DNA of 15,232 bases from a virus. Below the pieces are notes generated by a model. That model ran no database searches. It was not told the DNA's origin and saw only the letters and a program-made list of their open reading frames with translations. The stretch is from UHGV virus genome UHGV-1764584; one strand, given 5' to 3'. Of the stretch, positions 4,699 to 15,232 are shown one piece after another (position 1 is the stretch's first letter; every line of letters begins with the position of its first letter). A program made the position numbers and the translations under genes.

Positions 4699-4826
4699 AC
4701 CACAATATGTGGTATTAAAACCACATATTGTGAGTTTTTCAATGGGCGAAACAAAAAATAACCTTCTATTTGTGGTCCACCTCTCGTCTTACCATGTGAA
4801 AACCACTAAATGTGGTAATGTATAAA
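4699..4826. promoter_or_regulatory. Divergent promoter/operator region between the cro-like and cI-like genes
   Basis: Operator-like sites: O1 4699-4713 (ACCACA-ATA-TGTGGT, perfect), O2 4720-4734 (ACCACA-TAT-TGTGAG), O4 4802-4816 (ACCACT-AAA-TGTGGT). Leftward promoter TTGAAA (rc of 4737-4742), 17 bp, TTTAAT (rc of 4714-4719), with O2 in the spacer. Rightward candidate -10 TATAAA at 4821-4826. Confidence 0.55.
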
Positions 4827-4853: not shown

Positions 4854-5510
4854 ATGAAAAGCAACGACGAGAACATCAAGAAAGAAATAGGTCTGCGCAT
4901 TCAGACTCTACGGAAACAATCCGGCATGACTGCCGGAGATCTCCAGCAAGTCACTGGAATAGGCTTAAGCACCTTGCAGAACTATGAGGCCGGATTAAGA
5001 CAACCATCTATACCTGCCATCAAGAAAATCGCGCACGCCCTGAAAGCATCAGCGCCTTATATCGCGTGCTTAACAGATAACCCGTTCCCACCCCAGAATA
5101 CTAACGCTCCTGTTATTCCTGGGCTTGTAGCTATAAAAAATGACATAGCATCGCACGCCGGAGAAAAGCCAGTGCTGGCGATAGAACAGGAGATTCTACG
5201 AAGCAAGAACATCAACCCATCGTCTCTGTCAGTTCTCCAGAGCAACGATGAGTTAATGTCACCAACAATATCCCCTGGCTCCCAAGTCCTGATTAATACA
5301 GACGATACAGAGATTCATGAGGGGATCTATGCCCTTGAAGACAGAAATGGCCTGGTTGTTTTGAGGCACTGTAGAGTCATACCGGGTGACAATGCTGTTA
5401 TGCTGTCAACCGAAAGGGATGCTGAAATGAACACTAAGCATCTGAATAACGAGGAATTTAAGCGTTATAAAGTTCTTGGCCGCGTAGTTAGTGTTGTCAA
5501 CTGGTTATGA
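4854..5510 (+). CDS. cI-like repressor (XRE-type HTH plus LexA/S24-like C-terminal domain)
   Basis: N-terminal HTH (IGLRIQTLRKQSGMTAGDLQQVTGIGLSTLQNYEAG). C-terminal domain shows the S24-like pattern (GIYALEDRNGLVVLR...VLGRVVSV). Confidence 0.8.
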   Translation: MKSNDENIKKEIGLRIQTLRKQSGMTAGDLQQVTGIGLSTLQNYEAGLRQPSIPAIKKIAHALKASAPYIACLTDNPFPPQNTNAPVIPGLVAIKNDIASHAGEKPVLAIEQEILRSKNINPSSLSVLQSNDELMSPTISPGSQVLINTDDTEIHEGIYALEDRNGLVVLRHCRVIPGDNAVMLSTERDAEMNTKHLNNEEFKRYKVLGRVVSVVNWL

Positions 5511-5551: not shown

Positions 5552-5591
5552 AACCACATTTTGTGGTTTTGACAACATGTAAAAGTATAAA
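5552..5591 (+). promoter_or_regulatory. Operator O5 plus promoter elements upstream of gene 5603-5977
   Basis: O5 at 5552-5568 is a perfect 7-bp-arm palindrome AACCACA-TTT-TGTGGTT. TTGACA at 5569-5574 and TATAAA at 5586-5591 follow. Exact promoter geometry unresolved. Confidence 0.5.
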
Positions 5592-5980: not shown

Positions 5981-6000
5981 CAAGCGGGCTAACGCCCGCT
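5981..6000 (+). terminator. Hairpin terminator candidate after gene 5603-5977
   Basis: AAGCGGGC-TAAC-GCCCGCTT, an 8-bp stem 4 nt past the stop, followed by an AU-rich tract. Confidence 0.45.
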
Positions 6001-6103
6001 TATATGATTATAGATTTATATAATTATATAAAACGCTTTTCATCCGCCAAAAAGTTGGTTATGCTTACCTCGTTCTATAAATATAGATTTATAGAATTAT
6101 ATA
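6001..6103. repeat. Two AT-rich boxes upstream of parA (candidate par operator/centromere-like repeats)
   Basis: TATAGATTTATA at 6008-6019 and 6082-6093, each followed by (T)AATTATATAA. The same core recurs at 6798-6809. Confidence 0.5.
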
Positions 6104-6127
6104 ACCAAACACATGGAGTCTCGACAA

Positions 6128-6781
6128 ATGACTATCTCTGTAGGTATTTTCAACGGAAAAGGCGGCGTAACCAAATCAACAATTGCCCGTGCTTTAGCAG
6201 TTGCTTATGCAAAGGCTGGCTGGAATGTATGCCTGATCGATATGGATGTGCTTAACGGAACGGTAACGCGTTGGGTACAACGCAGAATGGCCAACAATAT
6301 CGAACCAGCAATCGCGGCGCAGCCGTGCGGCACACCATCACAAGTCCAGAAAATCATCGAATCAGAAGTATACGACCTGGTTATCGTCGATGGCGGTGCC
6401 TACGCATCTGAATCAGTACCGAAGCTCTCTGAATTTCTGGATATGGTTATTTTGCCAACCAGATTCTCTACCGATGACCTGGAAACCACCGTTAACACAG
6501 CTCACGGCATCGTTAAAAAGGGTGTACCAATCAAGAAAATTTGCATGGTGTTTTCCGGCGCGGCTGAAAACGAAGCTGACTATATTGAAGCCCAAGAGTA
6601 CCTGGCTAATACGCCATACTTTGTTGTCGATAAGTACATTCCCCACAAGCCAGCTCTGAGCAAAGCTCAGGATAAGGGCTTAAGCCTCATTGAGTGCTCA
6701 TACGTTGCGCCACGCAAAAAGGCAGACGACGTTATTCAGGGGATTATCAACCAGCTTGAGGCTCTGACTACTGCCGCGTAA
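6128..6781 (+). CDS. parA: ParA-family partition ATPase (small ParF-type)
   Basis: Deviant Walker A GKGGVTKST, Walker A' LIDMD, and VIVDGGAYAS hydrophobic motif. Start chosen at ATG 6128 (GGAG at 6115-6118, 9-nt spacing); the ORF track's 6113 start is 5 codons longer. Confidence 0.8.
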   Translation: MTISVGIFNGKGGVTKSTIARALAVAYAKAGWNVCLIDMDVLNGTVTRWVQRRMANNIEPAIAAQPCGTPSQVQKIIESEVYDLVIVDGGAYASESVPKLSEFLDMVILPTRFSTDDLETTVNTAHGIVKKGVPIKKICMVFSGAAENEADYIEAQEYLANTPYFVVDKYIPHKPALSKAQDKGLSLIECSYVAPRKKADDVIQGIINQLEALTTAA

Positions 6782-6812
6782 TATATAATTATAGTTTTAT
6801 AGATTTATATAA
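6781..6812. repeat. AT-rich box between parA and the parG-like gene
   Basis: ATATATAATTATAGTTTTATAGATTTATATAA, carrying the same TATAGATTTATATAA core as 6008-6022. Confidence 0.5.
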
Positions 6813-6824
6813 GAGGGGATACAC

Positions 6825-7294: not shown

Positions 7295-7318
7295 TAAAAA
7301 AGGCCCCCGAAGGGGCCT
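7295..7318 (-). terminator. Rho-independent terminator oriented for minus-strand transcription
   Basis: Stem AGGCCCC/GGGGCCT (7301-7307 with 7312-7318) and loop CGAA. The A-run at 7295-7300 gives a U-run after the hairpin on the minus-strand RNA. Confidence 0.55.
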
Positions 7319-7323
7319 AATCG

Positions 7324-7446
7324 CTACTTGCTGCTAATGTTTATCGTCACATTCAGAGCGTTATCAGTAATCTTCCAACCCTCCCCATGTGGCGTAAACA
7401 AAGCTCCAGTAACAACGATAAAAATACACATACAGTATTTTTTCAT
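7324..7446 (-). CDS. Candidate 40-aa hydrophobic peptide (MKKYCMCIFIVVTGALFTPHGEGWKITDNALNVTINISSK)
   Basis: ATG at 7446 with AAGGG 7 nt upstream; the SD sits in a GGCC...GGCC hairpin. N-terminal hydrophobic segment. Ends just before the terminator at 7295-7318. The ORF track's 60-aa version begins at a non-ATG codon upstream. Confidence 0.35.
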   Translation of the reverse strand: MKKYCMCIFIVVTGALFTPHGEGWKITDNALNVTINISSK

Positions 7447-7677
7447 TGTATGGCCCTTACAGGCCGTTTCACGACATCCCCACCGACGAAAACAACGCGA
7501 GAGCAAGCACGGCTGCTTGTGCTTGCATGTACGGCAACAGGAAATCCTCCCCTAAAGTCGGTGCCCGGGTGCGAATCGGCGGGAAGGTCCACAGGTATTT
7601 TACGATTATTTTAAGATTAGTAATAGGAAAGAAATTAAACGAAAAAAACAGTTTATTTTCACAAAATCAGTAACCTA

Positions 7678-7733
7678 CCCACAATCTGTGAGTTTGCTGA
7701 CACAACAAGAACCACAATTTTTTGATGTATAAT
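7678..7733 (+). promoter_or_regulatory. Operator-like sites and -10 element upstream of the candidate sRNA / antirepressor operon
   Basis: O6 at 7678-7692 (CCCACA-ATC-TGTGAG, close to O2) and half-site O7 at 7711-7716. TATAAT at 7728-7733 is preceded directly by TG. Confidence 0.45.
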
Positions 7734-7738
7734 AGTGG

Positions 7739-7870
7739 ACTATTATTACCTTTTGAGTAAAATCAATTTGCTGCTTGTGCTTGCGTGGTTGTTTATACAA
7801 CAACGTAATGCTGAAAGGACCGCGAATCCGATCAGCACGAAAGAACCGTCCTCAATAGGGCGGTTTTTTT
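7739..7870 (+). ncRNA. Candidate small RNA / terminated leader (about 130 nt)
   Basis: Runs from the TATAAT promoter to a terminator at 7844-7870 (stem AACCGUCC/GGGCGGUU with one G-U pair, loop UCAAUA, then U7). Positions 7770-7787 are complementary to the minus-strand RNA at 7512-7529. Internal hairpin GTTGTT-TATAC-AACAAC at 7788-7804. Confidence 0.35.
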
Positions 7871-8017
7871 GTTTCTGCCTACCAATAAACCCACGCTATG
7901 TGGTTGTCTCTGTTAAAATCCCGCCGTATTGACATGAATGCGCCATTGGTGGACACTTTCCGAGCCGTAGCAAAATCTACGGTCGGGATTGGAACCCCGT
8001 AGACACAATGGCGCATA

Positions 8018-8040
8018 CCGCGTTAGCGGTTTTTTTATGC
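8018..8040 (+). terminator. Second short terminator-like hairpin in the antirepressor leader
   Basis: ACCGC-GTTA-GCGGT followed by T7. A GATTGGAACC 10-mer is repeated at 7988-7997 and 8150-8159. Confidence 0.3.
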
Positions 8041-8202
8041 GTAAAGCACTGCTACACCCAAATTATGGTGGGGCGTGCGGGGGAGTCGTAAGACTCGCCG
8101 GTTCGTCATTGTGTCCGGTAGTTCCAACCCTGCACGTCTCACCACCCAATGATTGGAACCTGACGGTGGTGAGTATCCTTAACCTTTAAGGGAATCATCA
8201 CA

Positions 8203-8394
8203 ATGACAAACCTACCCCATGACTATTACGTCAACCTCGTAAAGATCCTTCTCAAGAAAGCCTCATACGCCGATAAATTACGCCTGGCTGAAATCATCGA
8301 GCGCGAAGCTATGCGCATCGCCAGCAACGATAACGCTGTTTCTGACGCAAAAATCTCCCTCGTAACCAAAGTTGTTATGGGAGGTGCAAAATGA
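8203..8394 (+). CDS. Small protein (63 aa) translationally coupled to the antirepressor gene
   Basis: AAGGGAA RBS; its stop overlaps the antirepressor ATG (ATGA at 8391). Occupies the position that icd has in P1 immI. No sequence family recognised. Confidence 0.5.
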   Translation: MTNLPHDYYVNLVKILLKKASYADKLRLAEIIEREAMRIASNDNAVSDAKISLVTKVVMGGAK

Positions 8395-9542
8395 AAACGC
8401 TTCCGACCGTTAACACCCTACAGCCTATCCTGCATAATCAGATTCCAGTAATCACAACTGAGCTACTCGCCCGCCTTTATGGAACAGAAGCAATCCGTAT
8501 ACAGCAAAATCACCATGAAAATAAAACTCGGTTCATTGAGGGGAAGCACTTCTTTAAAGCTGTTGGTGATGAACTCAAAAATTTGCGACTAGTTTTAAAC
8601 GAGTCACAAAATGAGGTGCAAATTTCCCCCAAAACTCGCTCTCTCATCCTCTGGACAGAACGCGGGGCTGCACGTCACGCCAAAATGCTTGAAACTAACC
8701 AAGCGTGGGATGTGTTCGAACGGCTGGAAGACTGCTATTTCAACCAGAACGCGCAAACGGCCGCGACCGTAACCGTCTCACCAAACAATGCTCGTGAGGT
8801 TGTCGATACGCTCAACGCCAAACCGATGTTTTACATTAAAGTGTGCAACAACGAGCCACTCACAACCTCAGCCGATGTTGCCCAGGCATTCAGCACCACA
8901 AACAATTCCATCGTTATGGCCATCGATGCGTTACGCATTCCTCGCACAGCTGCGGCGCGTCATTTCTTTAAAGAGCAACGACCGTTGGAAGGAAGCGACC
9001 GCGAAATAACAATCTATCGCATGACAAAAGACGGATTTACCTTGCTCATGGAAAGTATCGACGGTCCAGGCGTGAAGGATATCAAGCTGGCCTACATTGA
9101 AGCCTTTAACGCTATCAGCAGCGTGTTAAAAACACAGTACGAGCGCGATCTGGCTAAACGACTGTACCAGGAAAAAACGATTATCCGCGCGGCAACAGAG
9201 CATAATCGGCTATTAACGGAACCGAACTACAGGAAGGAACTAATCAAGGAGTTTGACAAGGCAACAGGGAAAACCAAAGCGGCGCTAAGTCTGCCAGCAA
9301 TGACTCAGGAAAATGTGATATCAGCCTTACTTCTTGATCTGCTCAGAAACGCCAGAGCACTTATCAGCTTTGACGAAAACCTGAATCCTCAGCTCAAGCT
9401 ACTACCACCGACAGGCAAAGTAGTCGACCAGGCTGATCACAACAGCATACTCAGCGTACTGGATGCAAACCTGCCAGCCAGGACACTACAGGATCTGATA
9501 AAAACATGTGCTGATAAGCTGGCACAGAAAAGCAGACCATAA
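8391..9542 (+). CDS. Phage antirepressor (N-terminal ORF6N domain plus Rha/AntA-like domain)
   Basis: N-terminal IPVITTELLARLYGTEAIRIQQNHHENKTRFIEGKHFFK...LILWTERGAARHAKMLETNQAWDVFERLEDCYF is a classic ORF6N pattern. Middle PLTTSADVAQAFSTTNNSIVMAIDAL is Rha/AntA-like. Confidence 0.8.
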   Translation: MKTLPTVNTLQPILHNQIPVITTELLARLYGTEAIRIQQNHHENKTRFIEGKHFFKAVGDELKNLRLVLNESQNEVQISPKTRSLILWTERGAARHAKMLETNQAWDVFERLEDCYFNQNAQTAATVTVSPNNAREVVDTLNAKPMFYIKVCNNEPLTTSADVAQAFSTTNNSIVMAIDALRIPRTAAARHFFKEQRPLEGSDREITIYRMTKDGFTLLMESIDGPGVKDIKLAYIEAFNAISSVLKTQYERDLAKRLYQEKTIIRAATEHNRLLTEPNYRKELIKEFDKATGKTKAALSLPAMTQENVISALLLDLLRNARALISFDENLNPQLKLLPPTGKVVDQADHNSILSVLDANLPARTLQDLIKTCADKLAQKSRP

Positions 9543-9579: not shown

Positions 9580-10279
9580 ATCAACACCAGAGACTTTCTG
9601 AAAATCCTTTCGAATAGCGTCAGCGTCACGCGCCAAGCCCATACTCGAACGTGTCGCCATATGACGAAAATGATCAACTGCCGGAAACAAAGAAATAATG
9701 GACCCAATAGCTTGCAGCAAACTCGCTTTTCTACGCATCATAATTCCACCATAACCGATAACCACCCTTCAGACACAACCCCCCCTCCCCCCATACAGGG
9801 TGCCCTTTACCGGAGTTCCGGCCCCTTCTCAAAAGCATCAAAAAAAGCTCGAGATCGAGTACCGGAACTCATGCCACCAGATAGCTCCACATCGTTTCCA
9901 ATGCTTCGCCGCCGTGTGCGCCCTGTGGCCCACAATCATGCCATTGGTCGTCTGATATACCTTCTTCTGCTCATAGAGCACAGGCGAGTTGTCGCACTCC
10001 TGCCTTTCTCAGACTCGACTTAGTTTAGATCGCTGTTCCTGGCTTGCGTCAGCACACTTTCCCCTTGTACGCATACCCGCGCGCCACTTCGCCCAAAAAC
10101 ACCGAACCCAACGAAGTGGCAAAGACAACGACGCGAGCGTGAGTCTGAAATGGGCACCAGTAAAAAAGGGGTTGCAGGCGCAAAAAGATTTGATTATCTT
10201 TAGACGCAAGAAAGCCGCCCCAATCAAGAGGTGTCTTTTTAAATCCAGCCTACCAAGCAAGATTTAAATTTCAGACTGA

Positions 10280-10310
10280 AAACCGCCCGGCAAGGCGGTT
10301 TTTGTCTTTC
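10280..10310. terminator. Terminator hairpin, usable in both directions
   Basis: 8-bp stem AAACCGCC/GGCGGTTT with loop CGGCAA. A T-run follows on the plus strand and an A-run precedes it. Lies about 50 nt downstream of the minus-strand XRE gene stop. Confidence 0.5.
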
Positions 10311-10351
10311 TGGCGCTTACATTACACCACCATAAAACGATCCGTAAAGGA

Positions 10352-11254: not shown

Positions 11255-11635
11255 TTACTTAACGAGGAATAAAAATGGTTTATTGTTCGGCGGTGTAATC
11301 GGGGCTGGCTCGCTTTTGCTCATGCGATCAGTGTACCAGGCCAACTCCTTGTCAAAGTAAGCCTGATTAAAATAGGCCATGAATGTAGTTTCAAATCCAT
11401 AACGACCGCTAATACGCAGCATCTGATTGCCGTTCTCTGTTTCCAGATATACCTGGGCACGTTCCTGATTCTCCTTCAGCCAGGTTAAAGCCTCATCGCA
11501 TGAGGACACACGATACTCATCATCGTAGCAGTCATCGATGCGGCTTGAGGAAGAACGGCAAATCACGCCAACAGAACCAGCCAGGATAGTTTGAATTTTA
11601 AGGAAAGCGTTTTTGCGGATTTTAATCATGCTCAT
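11255..11635 (-). CDS. Hypothetical 126-aa protein with signal-peptide-like N-terminus
   Basis: Intact ORF with GGAG 8 nt upstream. N-terminal basic then hydrophobic stretch (KIRKNAFLKIQTILAGSVGVIC), three Cys in the following 25 residues. Driven by copy B of the duplicated leader module. Confidence 0.55.
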   Translation of the reverse strand: MSMIKIRKNAFLKIQTILAGSVGVICRSSSSRIDDCYDDEYRVSSCDEALTWLKENQERAQVYLETENGNQMLRISGRYGFETTFMAYFNQAYFDKELAWYTDRMSKSEPAPITPPNNKPFLFLVK

Positions 11636-11642
11636 CGGGTTA

Positions 11643-11752
11643 TCTCCGGTTTAACCAGGGCGGGTATCGCTCGGTTTCGGGTATAACCTTAGGAATTTTT
11701 TTCCCACCTGTAAAGCACTTTTTATATAAATATATAATTATATAATTCTATG
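11643..11752 (-). promoter_or_regulatory. Copy B of the duplicated promoter/5' leader module
   Basis: Near-identical to 2167-2280, including RBS, TTTACA-17 bp-TAAGGT and the AT-rich box. Confidence 0.6.
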
Positions 11753-11783
11753 AGCACAAAAAAGCCCCTTTGCAACAGGGGCT
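11753..11783 (-). terminator. Rho-independent terminator after the antitoxin gene
   Basis: Stem AAGCCCCT/AGGGGCTT (11761-11768 with 11776-11783), loop TTGCAAC. The A6 run at 11755-11760 gives a U-run on the minus-strand RNA. Confidence 0.6.
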
Positions 11784-12688: not shown

Positions 12689-12979
12689 CTATTTTTGTGA
12701 CTTTACTCCTGGCATATGGACTTCCCAGCGACGAATCCCCATAGCTGCGCAAAAATCAGCCACATAATTCAATCCCGCCCATTCGCGGATACCACCACGG
12801 GCTTTTTCAATGAAAACGGCAATCCCTTTTTTATTGAGAGCAAAAAGCCGCCAGCTTTTTGTCACTTCGTCCTGGGTAGCCACAACACAAGTGAAAGCTC
12901 CCATGCGATACAGGTCCAAGAACTCTTTGCGTGTTTTGCGTACAAGTTCCATAACAAACCTCATATTTGCATGTTTCAA
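12689..12979 (-). CDS. Hypothetical 96-aa protein
   Basis: Intact ORF, ATGA-coupled to the upstream gene 12976-13275. Not recognised. Confidence 0.45.
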   Translation of the reverse strand: MKHANMRFVMELVRKTRKEFLDLYRMGAFTCVVATQDEVTKSWRLFALNKKGIAVFIEKARGGIREWAGLNYVADFCAAMGIRRWEVHMPGVKSQK

Positions 12980-13275
12980 ACATCTGTTTTGTTATCAATG
13001 AAGATTAACCCTAACCCAGCGAAGTAACACAGCAGCGCCCAGGCTGCATACGGAATGCTGGATCTGGATGTGGACTCCTTTAACATCTGCCAGTTGCGAA
13101 CATTGCGACTATCTTTTAAGCCAAGTTTTTTGGCCAACTGCGAGCCGCTCATTCCGGTCAGGCCAATGACTGCCCGAACTTCTCCACATGTAGGAGATTC
13201 CCATTCATCCGCTTTTTTTAAACAAGCCGGATTCAACATTTTTAAAACAGTATCTTTATCCATAACCATCTCCAT
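12976..13275 (-). CDS. Small HTH-containing protein with C-terminal hydrophobic segment (99 aa)
   Basis: HTH-like GLTGMSGSQLAKKLGLKDSRNVRNWQ; C-terminal IPYAAWALLCYFAGLGLIF looks like a membrane anchor. Confidence 0.45.
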   Translation of the reverse strand: MEMVMDKDTVLKMLNPACLKKADEWESPTCGEVRAVIGLTGMSGSQLAKKLGLKDSRNVRNWQMLKESTSRSSIPYAAWALLCYFAGLGLIFIDNKTDV

Positions 13276-13509
13276 TTATTATATCTACGATGGTAGGAAA
13301 TCTTTTCCTATGTGGCAATAGAAATTTACTACATTGCGTATAAGACAAGTTTTCTATGTCTAATAGGAAATGATGTTTCTTACGTTTTATCGCGTTCTGA
13401 TGGCTACTGTGTGCGTATTTATCGACGTTTATTGATAAGGCTCGCCCCTTCCTCCTGCAAAGCCCGGCCGTAGGCCTTATTTCGGCCTTATATAAATTGA
13501 TTTTGTATA

Positions 13510-13622
13510 GTTCGAAACGCGCCGTTTCGAAAAGGATGATCAGGCTGCTCCATGCCTCCGGCAAGTGCCGGAGGAGGTATATTTGAGCGTAGCGACTCGA
13601 ACCGGCGCGAGCTTTAGCTCGC
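13510..13622. repeat. Cluster of GC-rich perfect palindromes downstream of the origin
   Basis: TTCGAAACG-CGC-CGTTTCGAA (13510-13530), CCTCCGGCA-AG-TGCCGGAGG (13555-13574), GCGAGCT-TT-AGCTCGC (13607-13622). Confidence 0.5.
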
Positions 13623-13639
13623 TGCAAGGGCGAACATAT

Positions 13640-13900
13640 TCACAGGCAAAGCCTGCGTAAGTTAAATAAAGAAAGTTTTAATAAAAGAAAGTGATTTTGC
13701 ATTTATTTGTTTAGTGCATCTATTATAAAAAACCATTTGCATATACATATCAAAACTGTGGATAACTTTATTAGCCGATGCCTGTAAAGGCGATATTTTT
13801 GCTGTGTTCAGGTTTAGAGAAAATTAATTTAGATTGTTTTTTGAACAGATATTTTATTGCGACGTAGATAATCCTCCGGTAAAACCGGATTCATCATTCA
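13640..13900. other. Candidate IncFII-type vegetative origin (oriR-like AT-rich region with DnaA box)
   Basis: Immediately downstream of repA. Perfect DnaA box TTATCCACA (rc of 13757-13765), strongly AT-rich, direct repeat AAAGAAAGT at 13669-13677 and 13683-13691. Confidence 0.5.
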
Positions 13901-13906
13901 GGTGGG

Positions 13907-14755
13907 TTAATGTTGGAGTGATTTCCAGGTCTTTCTTAGCCTGTTATAACGCTGCTCAACGAGGGAGCGTAAATATGCAAGGTCAGCACCAGGATACATG
14001 CCATCAGCAAATTCCTGGCTAACCTCTCTAGTGATTTGATGGCGAAGTTCGGCCTCTCCCTTTTCCTGAACAAGACGCGCAGCTCTCTCCGCTGCTTTCT
14101 GTTTTGCCTTTATCTCTCTGGCCGTCTTCCTCTGACGCCATACATTCTCCATCTGCTCCTGAATAACAATACGCTTATAATCAGCCTCCGTTATCGCTTT
14201 TTTAAGCCGTTCGCTATTCTTCGCATTGAAGTAATTAAGTTTCTGGCTAACCGCACGTCTCCATGCTTGTTCAGTAATACCAACTGTTTCCAGCAGTTGA
14301 TCACGAATCTCGATTTTCGCTGGCCAATACTGTTTATTCACCCGATCCCAGCGACGTTCATAATCAATAAAACCTAACTCTTTCAGTTGCGACAACGCCC
14401 TTGTACAGCGCGTTATAGACTTGTTCCCAGCTTCGGATACGGTAGACAGGCCGCAAAAATCAGCCAACGCCTCAGCACTGGCCAGAACCCGCTTAGAAAT
14501 GATGTTTACATGGTGCAAAATCGCAGCAATCACAGCATTAATCGCCCGACGACGATGCTCGTTTATCCGGCGTTTCCGCTCTGACGGTTGATTAACGTAG
14601 AACGCAACCTCACACGTAAGATCACGACCATTAATGCGCTGTAAAGCATCAGATAACACCAGCGGCAGCTTGTGCGTATGGTGCTTTGGAGGCTGGAACT
14701 CCGGCGACAAATTACAAACGTAAGCTGAACGTAGAGACGGCATTGGTCTATCCAT
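13907..14755 (-). CDS. repA: IncFII-family replication initiator RepA1
   Basis: RRRAINAVIAAILHH...VLASAEALADFCGLSTVSEAGNKSITRCTRALSQLKELGFIDYERRWD aligns by eye with R100/R1 RepA1. Start set at the internal Met (MDRPMPS), giving 282 aa against about 285 for RepA1; the open frame extends to 14899. Confidence 0.8.
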   Translation of the reverse strand: MDRPMPSLRSAYVCNLSPEFQPPKHHTHKLPLVLSDALQRINGRDLTCEVAFYVNQPSERKRRINEHRRRAINAVIAAILHHVNIISKRVLASAEALADFCGLSTVSEAGNKSITRCTRALSQLKELGFIDYERRWDRVNKQYWPAKIEIRDQLLETVGITEQAWRRAVSQKLNYFNAKNSERLKKAITEADYKRIVIQEQMENVWRQRKTAREIKAKQKAAERAARLVQEKGEAELRHQITREVSQEFADGMYPGADLAYLRSLVEQRYNRLRKTWKSLQH

Positions 14756-14765
14756 ATGTTCGCTC

Positions 14766-14882
14766 TTGCGTCCACGGAAAACCAACGTATAATGGGAGTT
14801 GTCGAGGCGCCCATGGTTAGTTGTTGGTTTTCCTTTCCGTGGATGTCGCAAGAAGCCCGCAGATTTATCTGCGGGCTTTTTG
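14766..14882 (+). ncRNA. CopA-like antisense RNA with its promoter, opposite the repA leader
   Basis: -35 TTGCGT (14766-14771), 16 bp, -10 TATAAT (14788-14793). Terminator stem AAGCCCGCAGA/TCTGCGGGCTT (14853-14878) followed by TTTTTGTTT. The RNA would be about 83 nt, complementary to the region 45-130 nt upstream of the repA start. Confidence 0.55.
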
Positions 14883-14913
14883 TTTCCATATCTGGTCACT
14901 TTTCAACCAGACA

Positions 14914-14941
14914 CCCACAATCATAACCACGTTACGTGGTT
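14914..14941. promoter_or_regulatory. Palindromic operator candidate in the repA promoter region
   Basis: AACCACG-T-TACGTGGTT (14925-14941, 8-bp arms) preceded by CCCACAATC (14914-14922), identical to the left 9 nt of O6. On the minus strand it lies just upstream of a TATGAT -10 candidate. Confidence 0.4.
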
Positions 14942-15070
14942 TTAAGAGAACTCTACCACAACACTTTCGGTCATGCACGAAGTCTCTCACTGATCGAACG
15001 ATAATCCACCAGTAAAAGGATCTAAATTGGATCTCGTTTTGCGAGCATCATACTACTGGCCTAACTCCAG

Positions 15071-15220
15071 TCAATGATTCCCAGCCGGAAACCTGCGGTA
15101 AAGCGTGGATAAGGTAACATCGAAGATAATCGCTATCCGCTTACGTGAAACACCATTCGCAATAAGCCTTCCGATCTGGGGTTCTACGCCGGAACCGCCG
15201 GAATTTCCGGCCTGTGATTT
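15071..15220 (-). pseudogene. Remnant of a serine recombinase (resolvase/invertase) C-terminal HTH
   Basis: Minus-strand frame reads ...PQIGRLIANGVSRKRIAIIFDVTLSTLYRRFPAGNH*, matching the Hin/Gin/resolvase C-terminal HTH. The frame is closed by an in-frame stop at 15221-15223 with no start codon. Confidence 0.35.
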
Positions 15221-15232
15221 TTAGTGGTCCTT

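Follow-up and report, generated by a model that had tools for sequence, protein, structure and literature searches.

The replication initiator gene repA of the phage-plasmid studied here carries, at its promoter region, a 17-bp palindrome of the same type as the sites that flank the gene for the element's CI-like repressor, and we lean toward the view that this prophage repressor takes CopB's part in controlling repA transcription. Because the site at the repA promoter is of the repressor-flanking type, copy control seems to be tied into the switch between lysis and lysogeny. An earlier reading of the same DNA, made from the sequence alone, had raised a tie between repA and the phage repressor circuit as a possibility. 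Our comparisons argue for such a tie, which we infer from the facts that the site type is shared, that it is conserved among relatives, and that it co-varies with repressor type.

The DNA analysed (the window, a stretch of 15,232 nt of virus genome UHGV-1764584) comes from a ~48-kb myovirus-type phage-plasmid. Among 5426 complete E. coli genomes, 72 contain the element, plasmid-borne every time; it is carried by the quality-control strain ATCC 25922, and the Yersinia phages vB_YpM_39, 41 and 44 are virion-forming members. The ~48-kb family is absent among the eight named phage-plasmid groups, and a literature search found no paper on the family or its replication control. Its sole recognisable replication initiator is an IncFII-family RepA, with no second initiator annotated in the complete relatives. 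Two lineages enter the comparisons below: lineage A includes the window together with Salmonella and Klebsiella sublineages, and lineage B consists of the Citrobacter locus L016 plus L015, L019, L030-L032, L041, L043 and L055. An Arsenophonus RepA homologue (33% identity) was set aside, its context being an unrelated P4-like plasmid.

The identification of an IncFII-type replicon, made in the sequence-only reading, holds up. The repA open reading frame occupies 13907-14899 in full on the minus strand; Pfam, homologue N-termini and annotation together assign the gene for an initiator of 282 aa to 13907-14755, the start being likely ATG 14755 or 14743 (residues MPSLRS), where homologues begin. 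RepA matches the Pfam family IncFII_repA (PF02387) with E=3.2e-44 and 151.8 bits (cut-off 22.9) over 2-272 of 275 profile positions. The 326-aa PGAP model, which starts near 14887 and passes through the antisense RNA gene, is probably too long. The origin with its perfect DnaA box was also correctly recognized: the box (TTATCCACA, minus strand, 13757-13765) lies 142 nt past the repA stop and is kept at +133 to +142 in relatives. It belongs to an origin block downstream of repA (13597-13774, minus strand), in which the DnaA box is followed by an AT-rich stretch with repeated ATGCA(A/C) and then by a conserved GC-rich hairpin region. This block is found at equal distance from the repA stop in lineage A, in lineage B, and in one conjugative-plasmid relative.

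The CopA-like RNA of the earlier reading stands as to promoter, terminator and architecture, but not as to sequence: an Rfam scan of 13300-15232 at E<=1 failed to match CopA and returned hits below threshold only, which owe their scores to the terminator hairpin. The antisense promoter is on the plus strand at 14766-14793 (-35 TTGCGT at 14766-14771, a 16-nt spacer, -10 TATAAT at 14788-14793), and its block CTCGACAACTCC(C/G)ATTATA is invariant in both lineages. The RNA, of ~86 nt between predicted ends at 14800-14885 (plus strand), is complementary to the repA leader and folds with z=-5.6 into two stem-loops, a 5' one whose apical part varies and a 3' one that is the terminator; the two hairpins are found in 11 variants. 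In the terminator hairpin (14850-14881, with a T run to 14885) 13 pairs are kept across 10 variants, three of them through compensatory changes, and none is broken. By analogy with CopA and the Inc RNAs, this RNA would limit RepA synthesis after transcription.

The repA mRNA leader is predicted to form a long stem (14764-14850, minus strand; fold z=-6.6) by pairing of CUUCUUGC...CCACGGAAA with GUUGGUUUUCCGUGGACGCAAGAG, burying a Shine-Dalgarno-like AAGAG upstream of ATG 14755; in its arms, changes that separate the window from L010/L003 compensate each other. As to a tap-like leader, no start-codon ORF ends at the repA start in the window, where the first ATG past the antisense promoter is in frame with repA. 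The sublineages have out-of-frame uORFs of 13 or 46 codons, and a leader of 33 codons, with the overlap ATGA, is found at locus L019 of lineage B. A conserved ORF beginning ATGGGCGCC... was rejected as a tap-like leader: it lacks a Shine-Dalgarno sequence, runs 83 codons into repA, and is without its ATG in lineage B.

The lack of copB noted from the sequence alone is borne out, both in the window, where no such ORF lies between repA and the invertase gene, and in the complete 48-kb relatives, where no CopB/RepA2 is annotated. The sole upstream minus-strand ORF has 41 aa and was judged unconserved by reading the relatives' sequences. In the place expected for copB is a gene for a DNA invertase (a serine recombinase, entered in the records as recombinase, hin or pinE), whose 3' end lies at 15071-15232 on the minus strand with its stop codon at 15073-15071.

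From its upstream sequences, repA appears to have two promoters in tandem, ~95 nt apart. The distal one, P1 (15047-15074, minus strand; TTGACT, 16 nt, TATGAT), overlaps the invertase stop codon and was the only one found by a simple promoter scan (10/12 matches). Relatives have TTGACT/G-16-TATCAT/TAGAAT in its place, also where the upstream neighbor is a terminator or a different gene. Directly downstream of P1 is a cluster of three GATC sites (14992-15033), and all relatives have two to five such sites at the equivalent place. The proximal promoter, P2 (14950-14978, minus strand), which has a poor -35 and was missed by the scan, we infer from the conservation of its hexamers and their spacing. 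It has -35 GTGCAT (14978-14973), a 17-nt spacer ending in TG (14958-14957), and -10 TAGAGT (14955-14950). Of the 25 distinct control regions, which come from both lineages, 23 retain the hexamers and the 17-nt spacing, whereas the spacer sequence has diverged; the remaining two have -35 ATGCA(T/C), one of them with -10 TAAAGT.

The candidate operator, AACCAC-GTTAC-GTGGTT, is at 14925-14941, about +2 to +18 of P2, beginning 9-10 nt past the -10. It had been described as a palindrome upstream of repA, and is a perfect one of 8+1+8 (AACCACGT-T-ACGTGGTT). Comparable operator-type sites are found at 4699-4713 (ACCACAATATGTGGT), 4720-4734 (ACCACATATTGTGAG) and 4802-4816 (ACCACTAAATGTGGT), in the divergent region of the early-left operon and the repressor gene, and at 5553-5567 (ACCACATTTTGTGGT), past the repressor gene terminator and upstream of the g124-parA operon. 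Operator-like sites also occur at 7678-7692 (CCCACAATCTGTGAG) and 7890-7904 (CCCACGCTATGTGGT), in the untranslated region upstream of an antirepressor-like operon, the antirepressor itself being at 8391-9542. The earlier statement that a central spacing of 1 rather than 3 bp sets the repA palindrome apart from the cI operators is wrong, and the caveat built on it, that a different binding protein is equally possible, finds no support, because the half-sites and the 5-bp spacing are the same as in the repressor-flanking sites: the repA palindrome shares both with the sites at 4699, 4802, 5553 and 7890, and all fit the type ACCAC-N5-GTGGT. This pattern occurs five times in the 15 kb, where 0.23 would be expected, and its core CCAC-N5-GTGG likewise five times, with 0.10 expected; 0 of 200 shuffles reach five. 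Three or four of the sites flank the repressor gene; the one at repA is single and isolated, ~9.4 kb from the immunity region. Since a different palindrome, TAGGAA-N5-TTCCYA, marks the targets of another regulator, the ACCAC set is not a generic promoter feature of the element.

The sequence-only reading had also laid weight on a half-site-like 9-mer that adjoins the operator (CCCACAATC, 14914-14922, plus strand). Its identity to an operator half (7678-7686) is real; the 9-mer recurs at 9929-9937 as well, making three exact copies in the window with 0.14 expected. At the repA position it is not conserved in L003, L010 and L018, and we rejected it as a second half-site conserved throughout the family, CCCGCATTC or CCCGCATAC replacing it in the Salmonella and Klebsiella sublineages.

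The half-sites of the repA site are invariant in the Salmonella and Klebsiella sublineages, whose control region is ~75% identical (relatives overall, 75-85%), and the central 5 bp vary (GTAAC, GTTGT, GATGT, GATGC). In lineage B, RepA is ~60% identical and the repressor only 27-30% identical, and the operator type flanking the repressor gene is TTGTAGT/ACTAC, a switch of one base per half-site (C to T). Five of the six TTGTAGT-type copies in 20.8 kb of L016 fall within ~150 bp at the repressor gene; the sixth, ACTAC-AAAAC-GTAGC, is at the homologous repA position and has a 12-mer, TTTTGTAGTCAA, in common with a repressor-region site. No cross-type site is found at the repA position in either lineage. 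A site of the lineage's own type appeared in the 40-nt target in 0 of 20000 shuffles for lineage A (exact match) and in 15 of 20000 for lineage B (up to 1 mismatch). We found two immunity types, and the co-variation rests on one evolutionary switch. A search for a third type with RepA and a RepA alignment gave no matches in genome contigs, while viral contigs searched with RepA, the RepA alignment and a ParA alignment, and metagenome contigs searched with a conserved 21-mer, yielded types A and B at most.

The CI-like repressor (218 aa, 4854-5510, plus strand; PHROG 4) combines an HTH_3 domain (E=4.5e-11) with a Peptidase_S24-like C-terminal domain that scores weakly (18.4 bits against a cut-off of 23.3). 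A PDB sequence search returned generic HTH_3 matches only, and BLASTP against E. coli LexA, using an approximate sequence, gave no usable alignment for the catalytic residues. The repressor is the only HTH protein adjoining the site cluster, and of the syntenic proteins it differs most between lineages A and B, its neighbors being 42-59% identical. Both observations count against the alternative that the ACCAC-N5-GTGGT set, repA site included, is bound by a different lineage-specific protein, for example a Cro-like lytic repressor or the 164-aa first early-left product, which would put repA under the lytic arm. That alternative draws on the use of common operators by lambdoid Cro proteins and CI, and on the divergence between lineages of the 164-aa and 171-aa early-left proteins (42-44% identity). 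It draws also on two half-site types near the lineage B repressor gene: because two GTGGTTA half-sites are retained there, specificities in lineage B may overlap, or a second protein may be involved. However, g99, a small HTH-like protein, goes with a different palindrome of its own, and the repA operators of phiKO2 are bound by CB and not by Cro (PMC4997575), so that we consider a different binding protein unlikely.

A second objection accepts binding by the repressor and gives it a positive or architectural effect, either activating a downstream promoter or looping to the immunity region 9.4 kb off, like lambda OL-OR. A lone operator far from the main cluster would suit such a role, full repression of the sole initiator gene would be harmful, and lineage A has a TTGA(A/C) element 20-30 nt downstream of the site. 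But there is no conserved -10 past the site: the TATGAT at 14922-14917, which we considered as a -10 element for a promoter across the palindrome, is TATGAA, TAAGTA or TACGAT in relatives. Moreover, the site overlaps the predicted start of the one conserved promoter, which is the usual geometry of repression, and the precedent of N15 and phiKO2 is one of repression (PMC4997575). We regard activation or looping as quite doubtful.

The palindrome arms are able to pair in RNA as well, and in the window they fold as a 7-bp hairpin with another hairpin, 14888-14915, beside it. A role as an RNA hairpin in the leader of repA (serving stability, pausing or antisense-target folding), its operator likeness coincidental, would agree with the C-to-T and G-to-A changes of lineage B, which preserve base pairing. 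Yet only 4 pairs are left in lineage B, shuffled sequences fold at least as well as the region (z=+0.56), and with the P2 start most of the 5' arm would be at the extreme 5' end of the transcript. Nor does a hairpin account for the identity, in each lineage, of the arms with the operators that flank the repressor gene, a match as rare by chance as the shuffle counts above indicate, and we find this reading very improbable. The slimmest chance we give to autoregulation by RepA binding the palindrome, as initiators of many iteron plasmids do: RepA too differs between lineages (~60% identity) and ATGCA(C/T), a repeated motif of the origin, is found again at the P2 -35, but the origin has no ACCAC or ACTAC palindrome, the same palindrome clusters round the repressor gene, where no role of RepA is known, and autoregulation is not known for IncFII RepA.

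In the favored reading, transcriptional control by the prophage repressor, the palindrome at +2 to +18 of P2 would be an operator for the CI-like protein, replacing CopB, and further operators of the repressor would be those at its own divergent promoter region, before the partition operon, and before the antirepressor region. In the lysogenic (plasmid) state P2 would be held down by the repressor, whose dose would climb with copy number and so provide a CopB-like transcriptional brake, with P1 as the basal supply; inactivation of the repressor would raise repA transcription and feed lytic replication. The poor -35 of P2 is a caveat, since if P1 alone is active the site would be ~100 nt into the transcript, where a roadblock is the only action open to it. 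The effect of the repressor must be partial, because the plasmid would not survive complete shutdown of repA.

More tentatively, one IncFII-type replicon may serve both life styles: loss of the repressor, by antirepressor or DNA damage, would open P2, and the same RepA and origin would drive lytic amplification, with the operator co-evolving with immunity type. If this is true, lysogenic replication would be held at the plasmid level by repressor and antisense RNA. Because the operator would co-evolve with immunity type, a resident repressor would halt replication of a superinfecting homoimmune genome, merging superinfection immunity with plasmid incompatibility. The site before the parA operon hints at a single regulon made up of copy number, partition and immunity. 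The two natural operator/repressor types, one base apart per half-site, offer a ready specificity-swap system.

Phage-plasmids must square tight copy control with the lytic switch, and to our knowledge the way they do so has been worked out in detail for no others than P1 and the N15 group. Here a textbook IncFII replicon of RepA and antisense RNA seems to have been stripped of its own transcriptional regulator and put under the lysogeny repressor. A closely similar layout is that of the R1/R100 (NR1) IncFII replicon, with copB (repA2), copA, tap, repA (repA1) and oriR. The likeness extends to an initiator of the same Pfam family, tandem promoters of which the downstream one has a dyad operator, a ~90-nt two-stem-loop antisense RNA inside the repA leader, and an origin ~140 nt downstream of repA with a DnaA box at its start. 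The window differs in being without copB, in a P1-P2 interval of only ~95 nt, and in an operator that fits the phage repressor sites; its antisense RNA is without an Rfam CopA match, a tap-like leader ORF is missing (lineage B has one, of 33 codons), and the replicon resides in a phage genome, adjoining the tail-fibre invertase.

The IncI-alpha, IncB and IncL-M replicons (Inc RNA, repY-repZ) have an IncFII-related RepA and an antisense RNA, are without CopB, and hold the rep ribosome-binding site in a stem. The replicon in the window resembles them in the absence of CopB, the antisense RNA and the buried site, but a leader peptide and a pseudoknot, neither of which we found in the window, are required there, and those replicons have no phage-repressor operator. 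In phage P1, the C1 repressor directly represses repL, of the lytic replicon, and the plasmid oriR/repA is not under C1. The likeness with P1 is that a phage-plasmid repressor acts, here by proposal, on transcription of a replication function; the difference is that P1 has two separate replicons, whereas our element has the repressor-type site on the plasmid-type replicon, with no second initiator annotated.

The RepA of N15 is an unrelated, multifunctional initiator of the primase/helicase type with an internal origin. Only for N15 and phiKO2 has it been shown that the prophage repressor, CB, binds to OL operators located at the repA promoter and brings copy number down (PMC4997575), and the telomere phage-plasmids N15, phiKO2 and PY54 follow the same logic as proposed here, with copy number coupled to the lysogenic state (PMC4997575). 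They differ in having linear genomes, and N15 and phiKO2 have two adjacent OL operators beside the repressor gene (PMC4997575), whereas in the window a single operator is 9.4 kb away. The element described here would add a second case of the N15 logic, one that is independent and built on an unrelated replicon.

The palindrome upstream of repA, AACCACGT-T-ACGTGGTT (14925-14941), has the same half-sites and the same spacing as the sites flanking the CI-like repressor gene (4854-5510, plus strand; HTH_3 and a weak S24-like domain), and a repeat search placed them all in one family. Three members lie in the divergent region upstream of the repressor gene (ACCAC-AATAT-GTGGT at 4699, ACCAC-ATATT-GTGAG at 4720 and ACCAC-TAAAT-GTGGT at 4802), one lies past its terminator (ACCAC-ATTTT-GTGGT at 5553), and two lie ahead of an antirepressor-like operon (CCCAC-AATCT-GTGAG at 7678 and CCCAC-GCTAT-GTGGT at 7890). 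Allowing one mismatch, ACCAC-N5-GTGGT occurs five times in the window where 0.23 were expected, as does the core CCAC-N5-GTGG where 0.10 were expected; none of 200 shuffles reached five in either case. The sequence-only reading had taken the repA palindrome to differ in spacing from the cI operators, making a different binding protein equally possible. The N5 spacing is in fact identical, the apparent 1-bp spacer arising because the central bases happen to be symmetric, and the caveat falls with it. Partition may be under the prophage repressor too, because the operator at 5553-5567 directly precedes the g124-parA operon.

The arms of the repA site, TAAAACCAC and GTGGTTA, are invariant in three relatives whose RepA is 80-85% identical to the window's: the Salmonella Weltevreden plasmid L003, the IMG/VR contig L010 and the Klebsiella aerogenes contig L018 (with the window, lineage A). 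The repressor is 61-65% identical where compared (L003 and L029, another part of the L010 contig), and the mean column identity of the control region, aligned across L003 and L010, is 76%. The centre of the site reads GTAAC, GTTGT, GATGT or GATGC in these relatives; fixed arms around a variable centre are what an operator bound by a dimer would show. The CCCACAATC motif beside the operator, also singled out earlier, is indeed over-represented (three exact copies in the window, 0.14 expected), but is replaced by CCCGCATTC or CCCGCATAC in L003, L010 and L018, and so is not a family feature. An 11-mer, CCCACAATCAT, occurs at both 9929-9939 and 14914-14924, the former copy within a stretch (~9770-10350) that holds no gene in annotated relatives.

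RepA homologues at ~60% identity led to a second set of phage-plasmids, lineage B (Citrobacter freundii L016 and L015, L019, L030-L034, L041, L043 and L055), which carry Mu-like baseplate genes and share the gene order of lineage A. Of the proteins shared between the lineages, the CI-like one has diverged furthest: its identity to the window's is 27-30%, against 42-59% for its neighbours. The 7-mer TTGTAGT has six copies in 20.8 kb of L016, five within ~150 bp at the repressor gene and the sixth at the position homologous to the window palindrome (ACTAC-AAAAC-GTAGC); a 12-mer, TTTTGTAGTCAA, is common to this repA site and one repressor-region site. Every lineage-B locus whose sequence includes the control region has an ACTAC-type repA site, and at that position no lineage-A locus has an ACTAC-type site and no lineage-B locus an ACCAC-type one. 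In shuffled sequence, an own-type site turned up in the 40-nt target 0 times in 20000 for lineage A, where an exact match was required, and 15 times in 20000 for lineage B, where up to one mismatch was allowed. The recognition helices diverge at their first residues (IGLSTLQNYE versus IPRSTIQNYE), a difference that would fit half-sites differing by a single base and otherwise alike. Several searches for further immunity types gave these two only. Lineage B also has two GTGGTTA half-sites, of lineage-A type, beside the repressor gene and next to its own TTGTAGT sites (L016 18847 and 19622; same places in L031-L034).

This comparative evidence (shared operator type, conservation and co-variation) supports the earlier suggestion that replication initiation may be tied to the phage repressor circuit. 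The whole site set, the repA site included, could instead be owned by another lineage-specific protein, for example a Cro-like one; against this, the CI-like protein is the only HTH protein at the site cluster, and the phiKO2 rep operators are not targets of Cro.

A simple promoter scan of the repA upstream region returned one promoter only, P1 (15074-15047, minus strand; TTGACT, 16 nt, TATGAT), which overlaps the invertase stop codon and is kept even in relatives with a terminator or another gene upstream. Just downstream of it, three GATC sites fall within 42 bp (14992-15033); all relatives of both lineages have two to five GATC in the same place, which points to post-replicative control of repA transcription by Dam/SeqA. 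We read GTGCA(T/C), a 17-nt spacer ending in TG, and TAGAGT (14978-14950, minus strand), ~95 nt past P1, as a putative second repA promoter of the extended −10 type, P2. Its elements recur in 23 of 25 distinct control regions, in both lineages and with unrelated spacer sequences; the remaining two have ATGCA(T/C) at −35, one of them with TAAAGT at −10. The operator starts 9-10 nt after the P2 −10, at about +2 to +18, which would be a repressing position. Action by activation or looping is possible, yet no conserved −10 lies downstream of the operator. In fold predictions the window palindrome does form a hairpin, through which it might work as RNA, but the hairpin shrinks to 4 bp in lineage B, where folding of the region is no better than that of shuffled sequence, and the identity of the arms with the repressor's operators would be left unexplained. 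Since no such palindrome occurs in the origin, RepA is unlikely to regulate its own gene through this one.

The replicon on which the CI-like repressor would act is of IncFII type, as had been proposed (repA, ORF 13907-14899, minus strand; Pfam IncFII_repA, E=3e-44). Because RepA homologues begin at M-x-LRS, the true start is probably ATG 14755 or 14743, which would make the 326-aa database model too long. RefSeq models of that length place the start ~130 nt ahead of the likely one and cross the antisense RNA gene, probably an annotation artefact; a Salmonella record has a short RepA form of 277 aa. The DnaA box is likewise confirmed: TTATCCACA lies at 13757-13765, 142 nt past the repA stop, and the origin block that it heads recurs, conserved and equally far from the stop, in all relatives compared, one conjugative plasmid among them. 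The origin also holds three copies of ATGCA(A/C) (13640-13756), whose reverse complement is the conserved P2 −35 GTGCAT (14973-14978); this may be a RepA-binding motif common to the origin and P2.

The absence of copB upstream of repA also stands: the sole ORF in the 330 nt there is one of 41 aa, which on inspection of the relatives' sequences was judged not to be conserved, and beyond it comes the DNA invertase gene. On a T4SS conjugative plasmid with a RepA 63% identical to the window's (L017 8790-10001), two small HTH_3 genes occupy the copB position immediately upstream of repA, preceded by a perfect LexA-box-like CTGTATAAATAAACAG. The antisense RNA proved to be CopA-like in design, not in sequence. 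Its promoter, inside the repA leader (14766-14793, plus strand; TTGCGT, 16 nt, perfect TATAAT), is followed ~86 nt downstream by a strong terminator hairpin (14850-14885, plus strand), and two stem-loops are predicted in all 11 variants folded, covering both lineages, with 13 pairs of the terminator stem kept, three through compensatory changes; the Rfam CopA model gave no match to the region. A Shine-Dalgarno-like AAGAG in the window is predicted to be buried in a long stem whose opposite arm is part of the antisense target. The window has no tap-like leader ORF; L019, of lineage B, has a 33-codon leader ending ATGA at the repA start. The L019 leader begins with the residues MENHT, and so does a 162-aa lineage-B ORF (L016 9516-10004) that is similar to RepA over its N-terminal half (31% identity) and lies between the antisense control region and full repA in L015, L016 and probably L030 and L031.

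Elsewhere in the window, ~900 nt without an annotated gene (7300-8200), ahead of the ORF6N/Rha antirepressor-like gene (8391-9542), contain the operator-like sites at 7678 and 7890, a repeated GCTGCTTGTGCTTGC (~7513, ~7770), several terminator-like hairpins and a TATAAT near 7730; its make-up suggests a secondary immunity control acting through RNA, like P1 c4, P4 CI or that of N15. A second palindrome family, TAGGAA-N5-TTCC(T/C)A (three sites, 0.5 expected; 2214-2230, 11690-11706 and 13294-13310), lies upstream of the DUF3560 gene, g126 (11255-11635) and g99 (12976-13275; weak PHROG 'repressor' match) and is probably another regulator's regulon; two of its sites fall within a 108-nt direct repeat (2167-2274 and 11643-11750, 96% identical). 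AT-rich TTATATAA-type repeats with an 8-bp phase (11 copies; 1021-1060, 2246-2277, 6000-6112, 6781-6820 and 11714-11761) lie on both sides of parA and in three further promoter-like regions; they are candidates for a centromere or for ParG-type binding sites.

The ~48-kb element is a phage-plasmid, because complete records of its family carry head, contractile-tail, lysis and tail-fibre-invertase genes as well as parA, a RelE/ParE toxin-antitoxin pair and one repA. Circular, non-mobilizable plasmids of this size from E. coli (including the ATCC 25922 plasmid), E. albertii, E. fergusonii and Klebsiella are 98-99% identical to the 15.2-kb window, and the myoviruses vB_YpM_39, 41 and 44, isolated on Yersinia pestis, are ~98.5% identical over the replicon region. 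Of 5426 complete E. coli genomes, 72 carry the repA control region, on a plasmid in every case. The family is absent from the eight named phage-plasmid groups, and a literature search found no paper on it.

We propose that, by binding 14925-14941, the CI-like repressor reduces transcription of repA from P2 and perhaps hinders P1 transcripts as well; P1 would supply basal transcript, and the antisense RNA would set the level of RepA translation. The repressor would act like CopB because its amount would climb with copy number, and its removal would increase repA transcription. More speculatively, the same replicon may drive lytic replication too, since no second initiator is annotated in the complete element; the DUF3560 protein matches a PHROG 'primase'.

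In plasmid R1, two tandem promoters, the downstream one with a dyad operator, precede the antisense target, and copB lies between the promoters. The window has the same layout of tandem promoters, operator and antisense RNA, but copB is absent from between the promoters and the operator is of the phage repressor's type; this appears to be an IncFII-type replicon with the CopB function handed to a prophage repressor. For N15 and phiKO2, binding of CB at OL operators, repression and an effect on copy number have been reported (PMC4997575); the repressor action proposed here is the same as CB's, whereas the replicon is unrelated to N15's.
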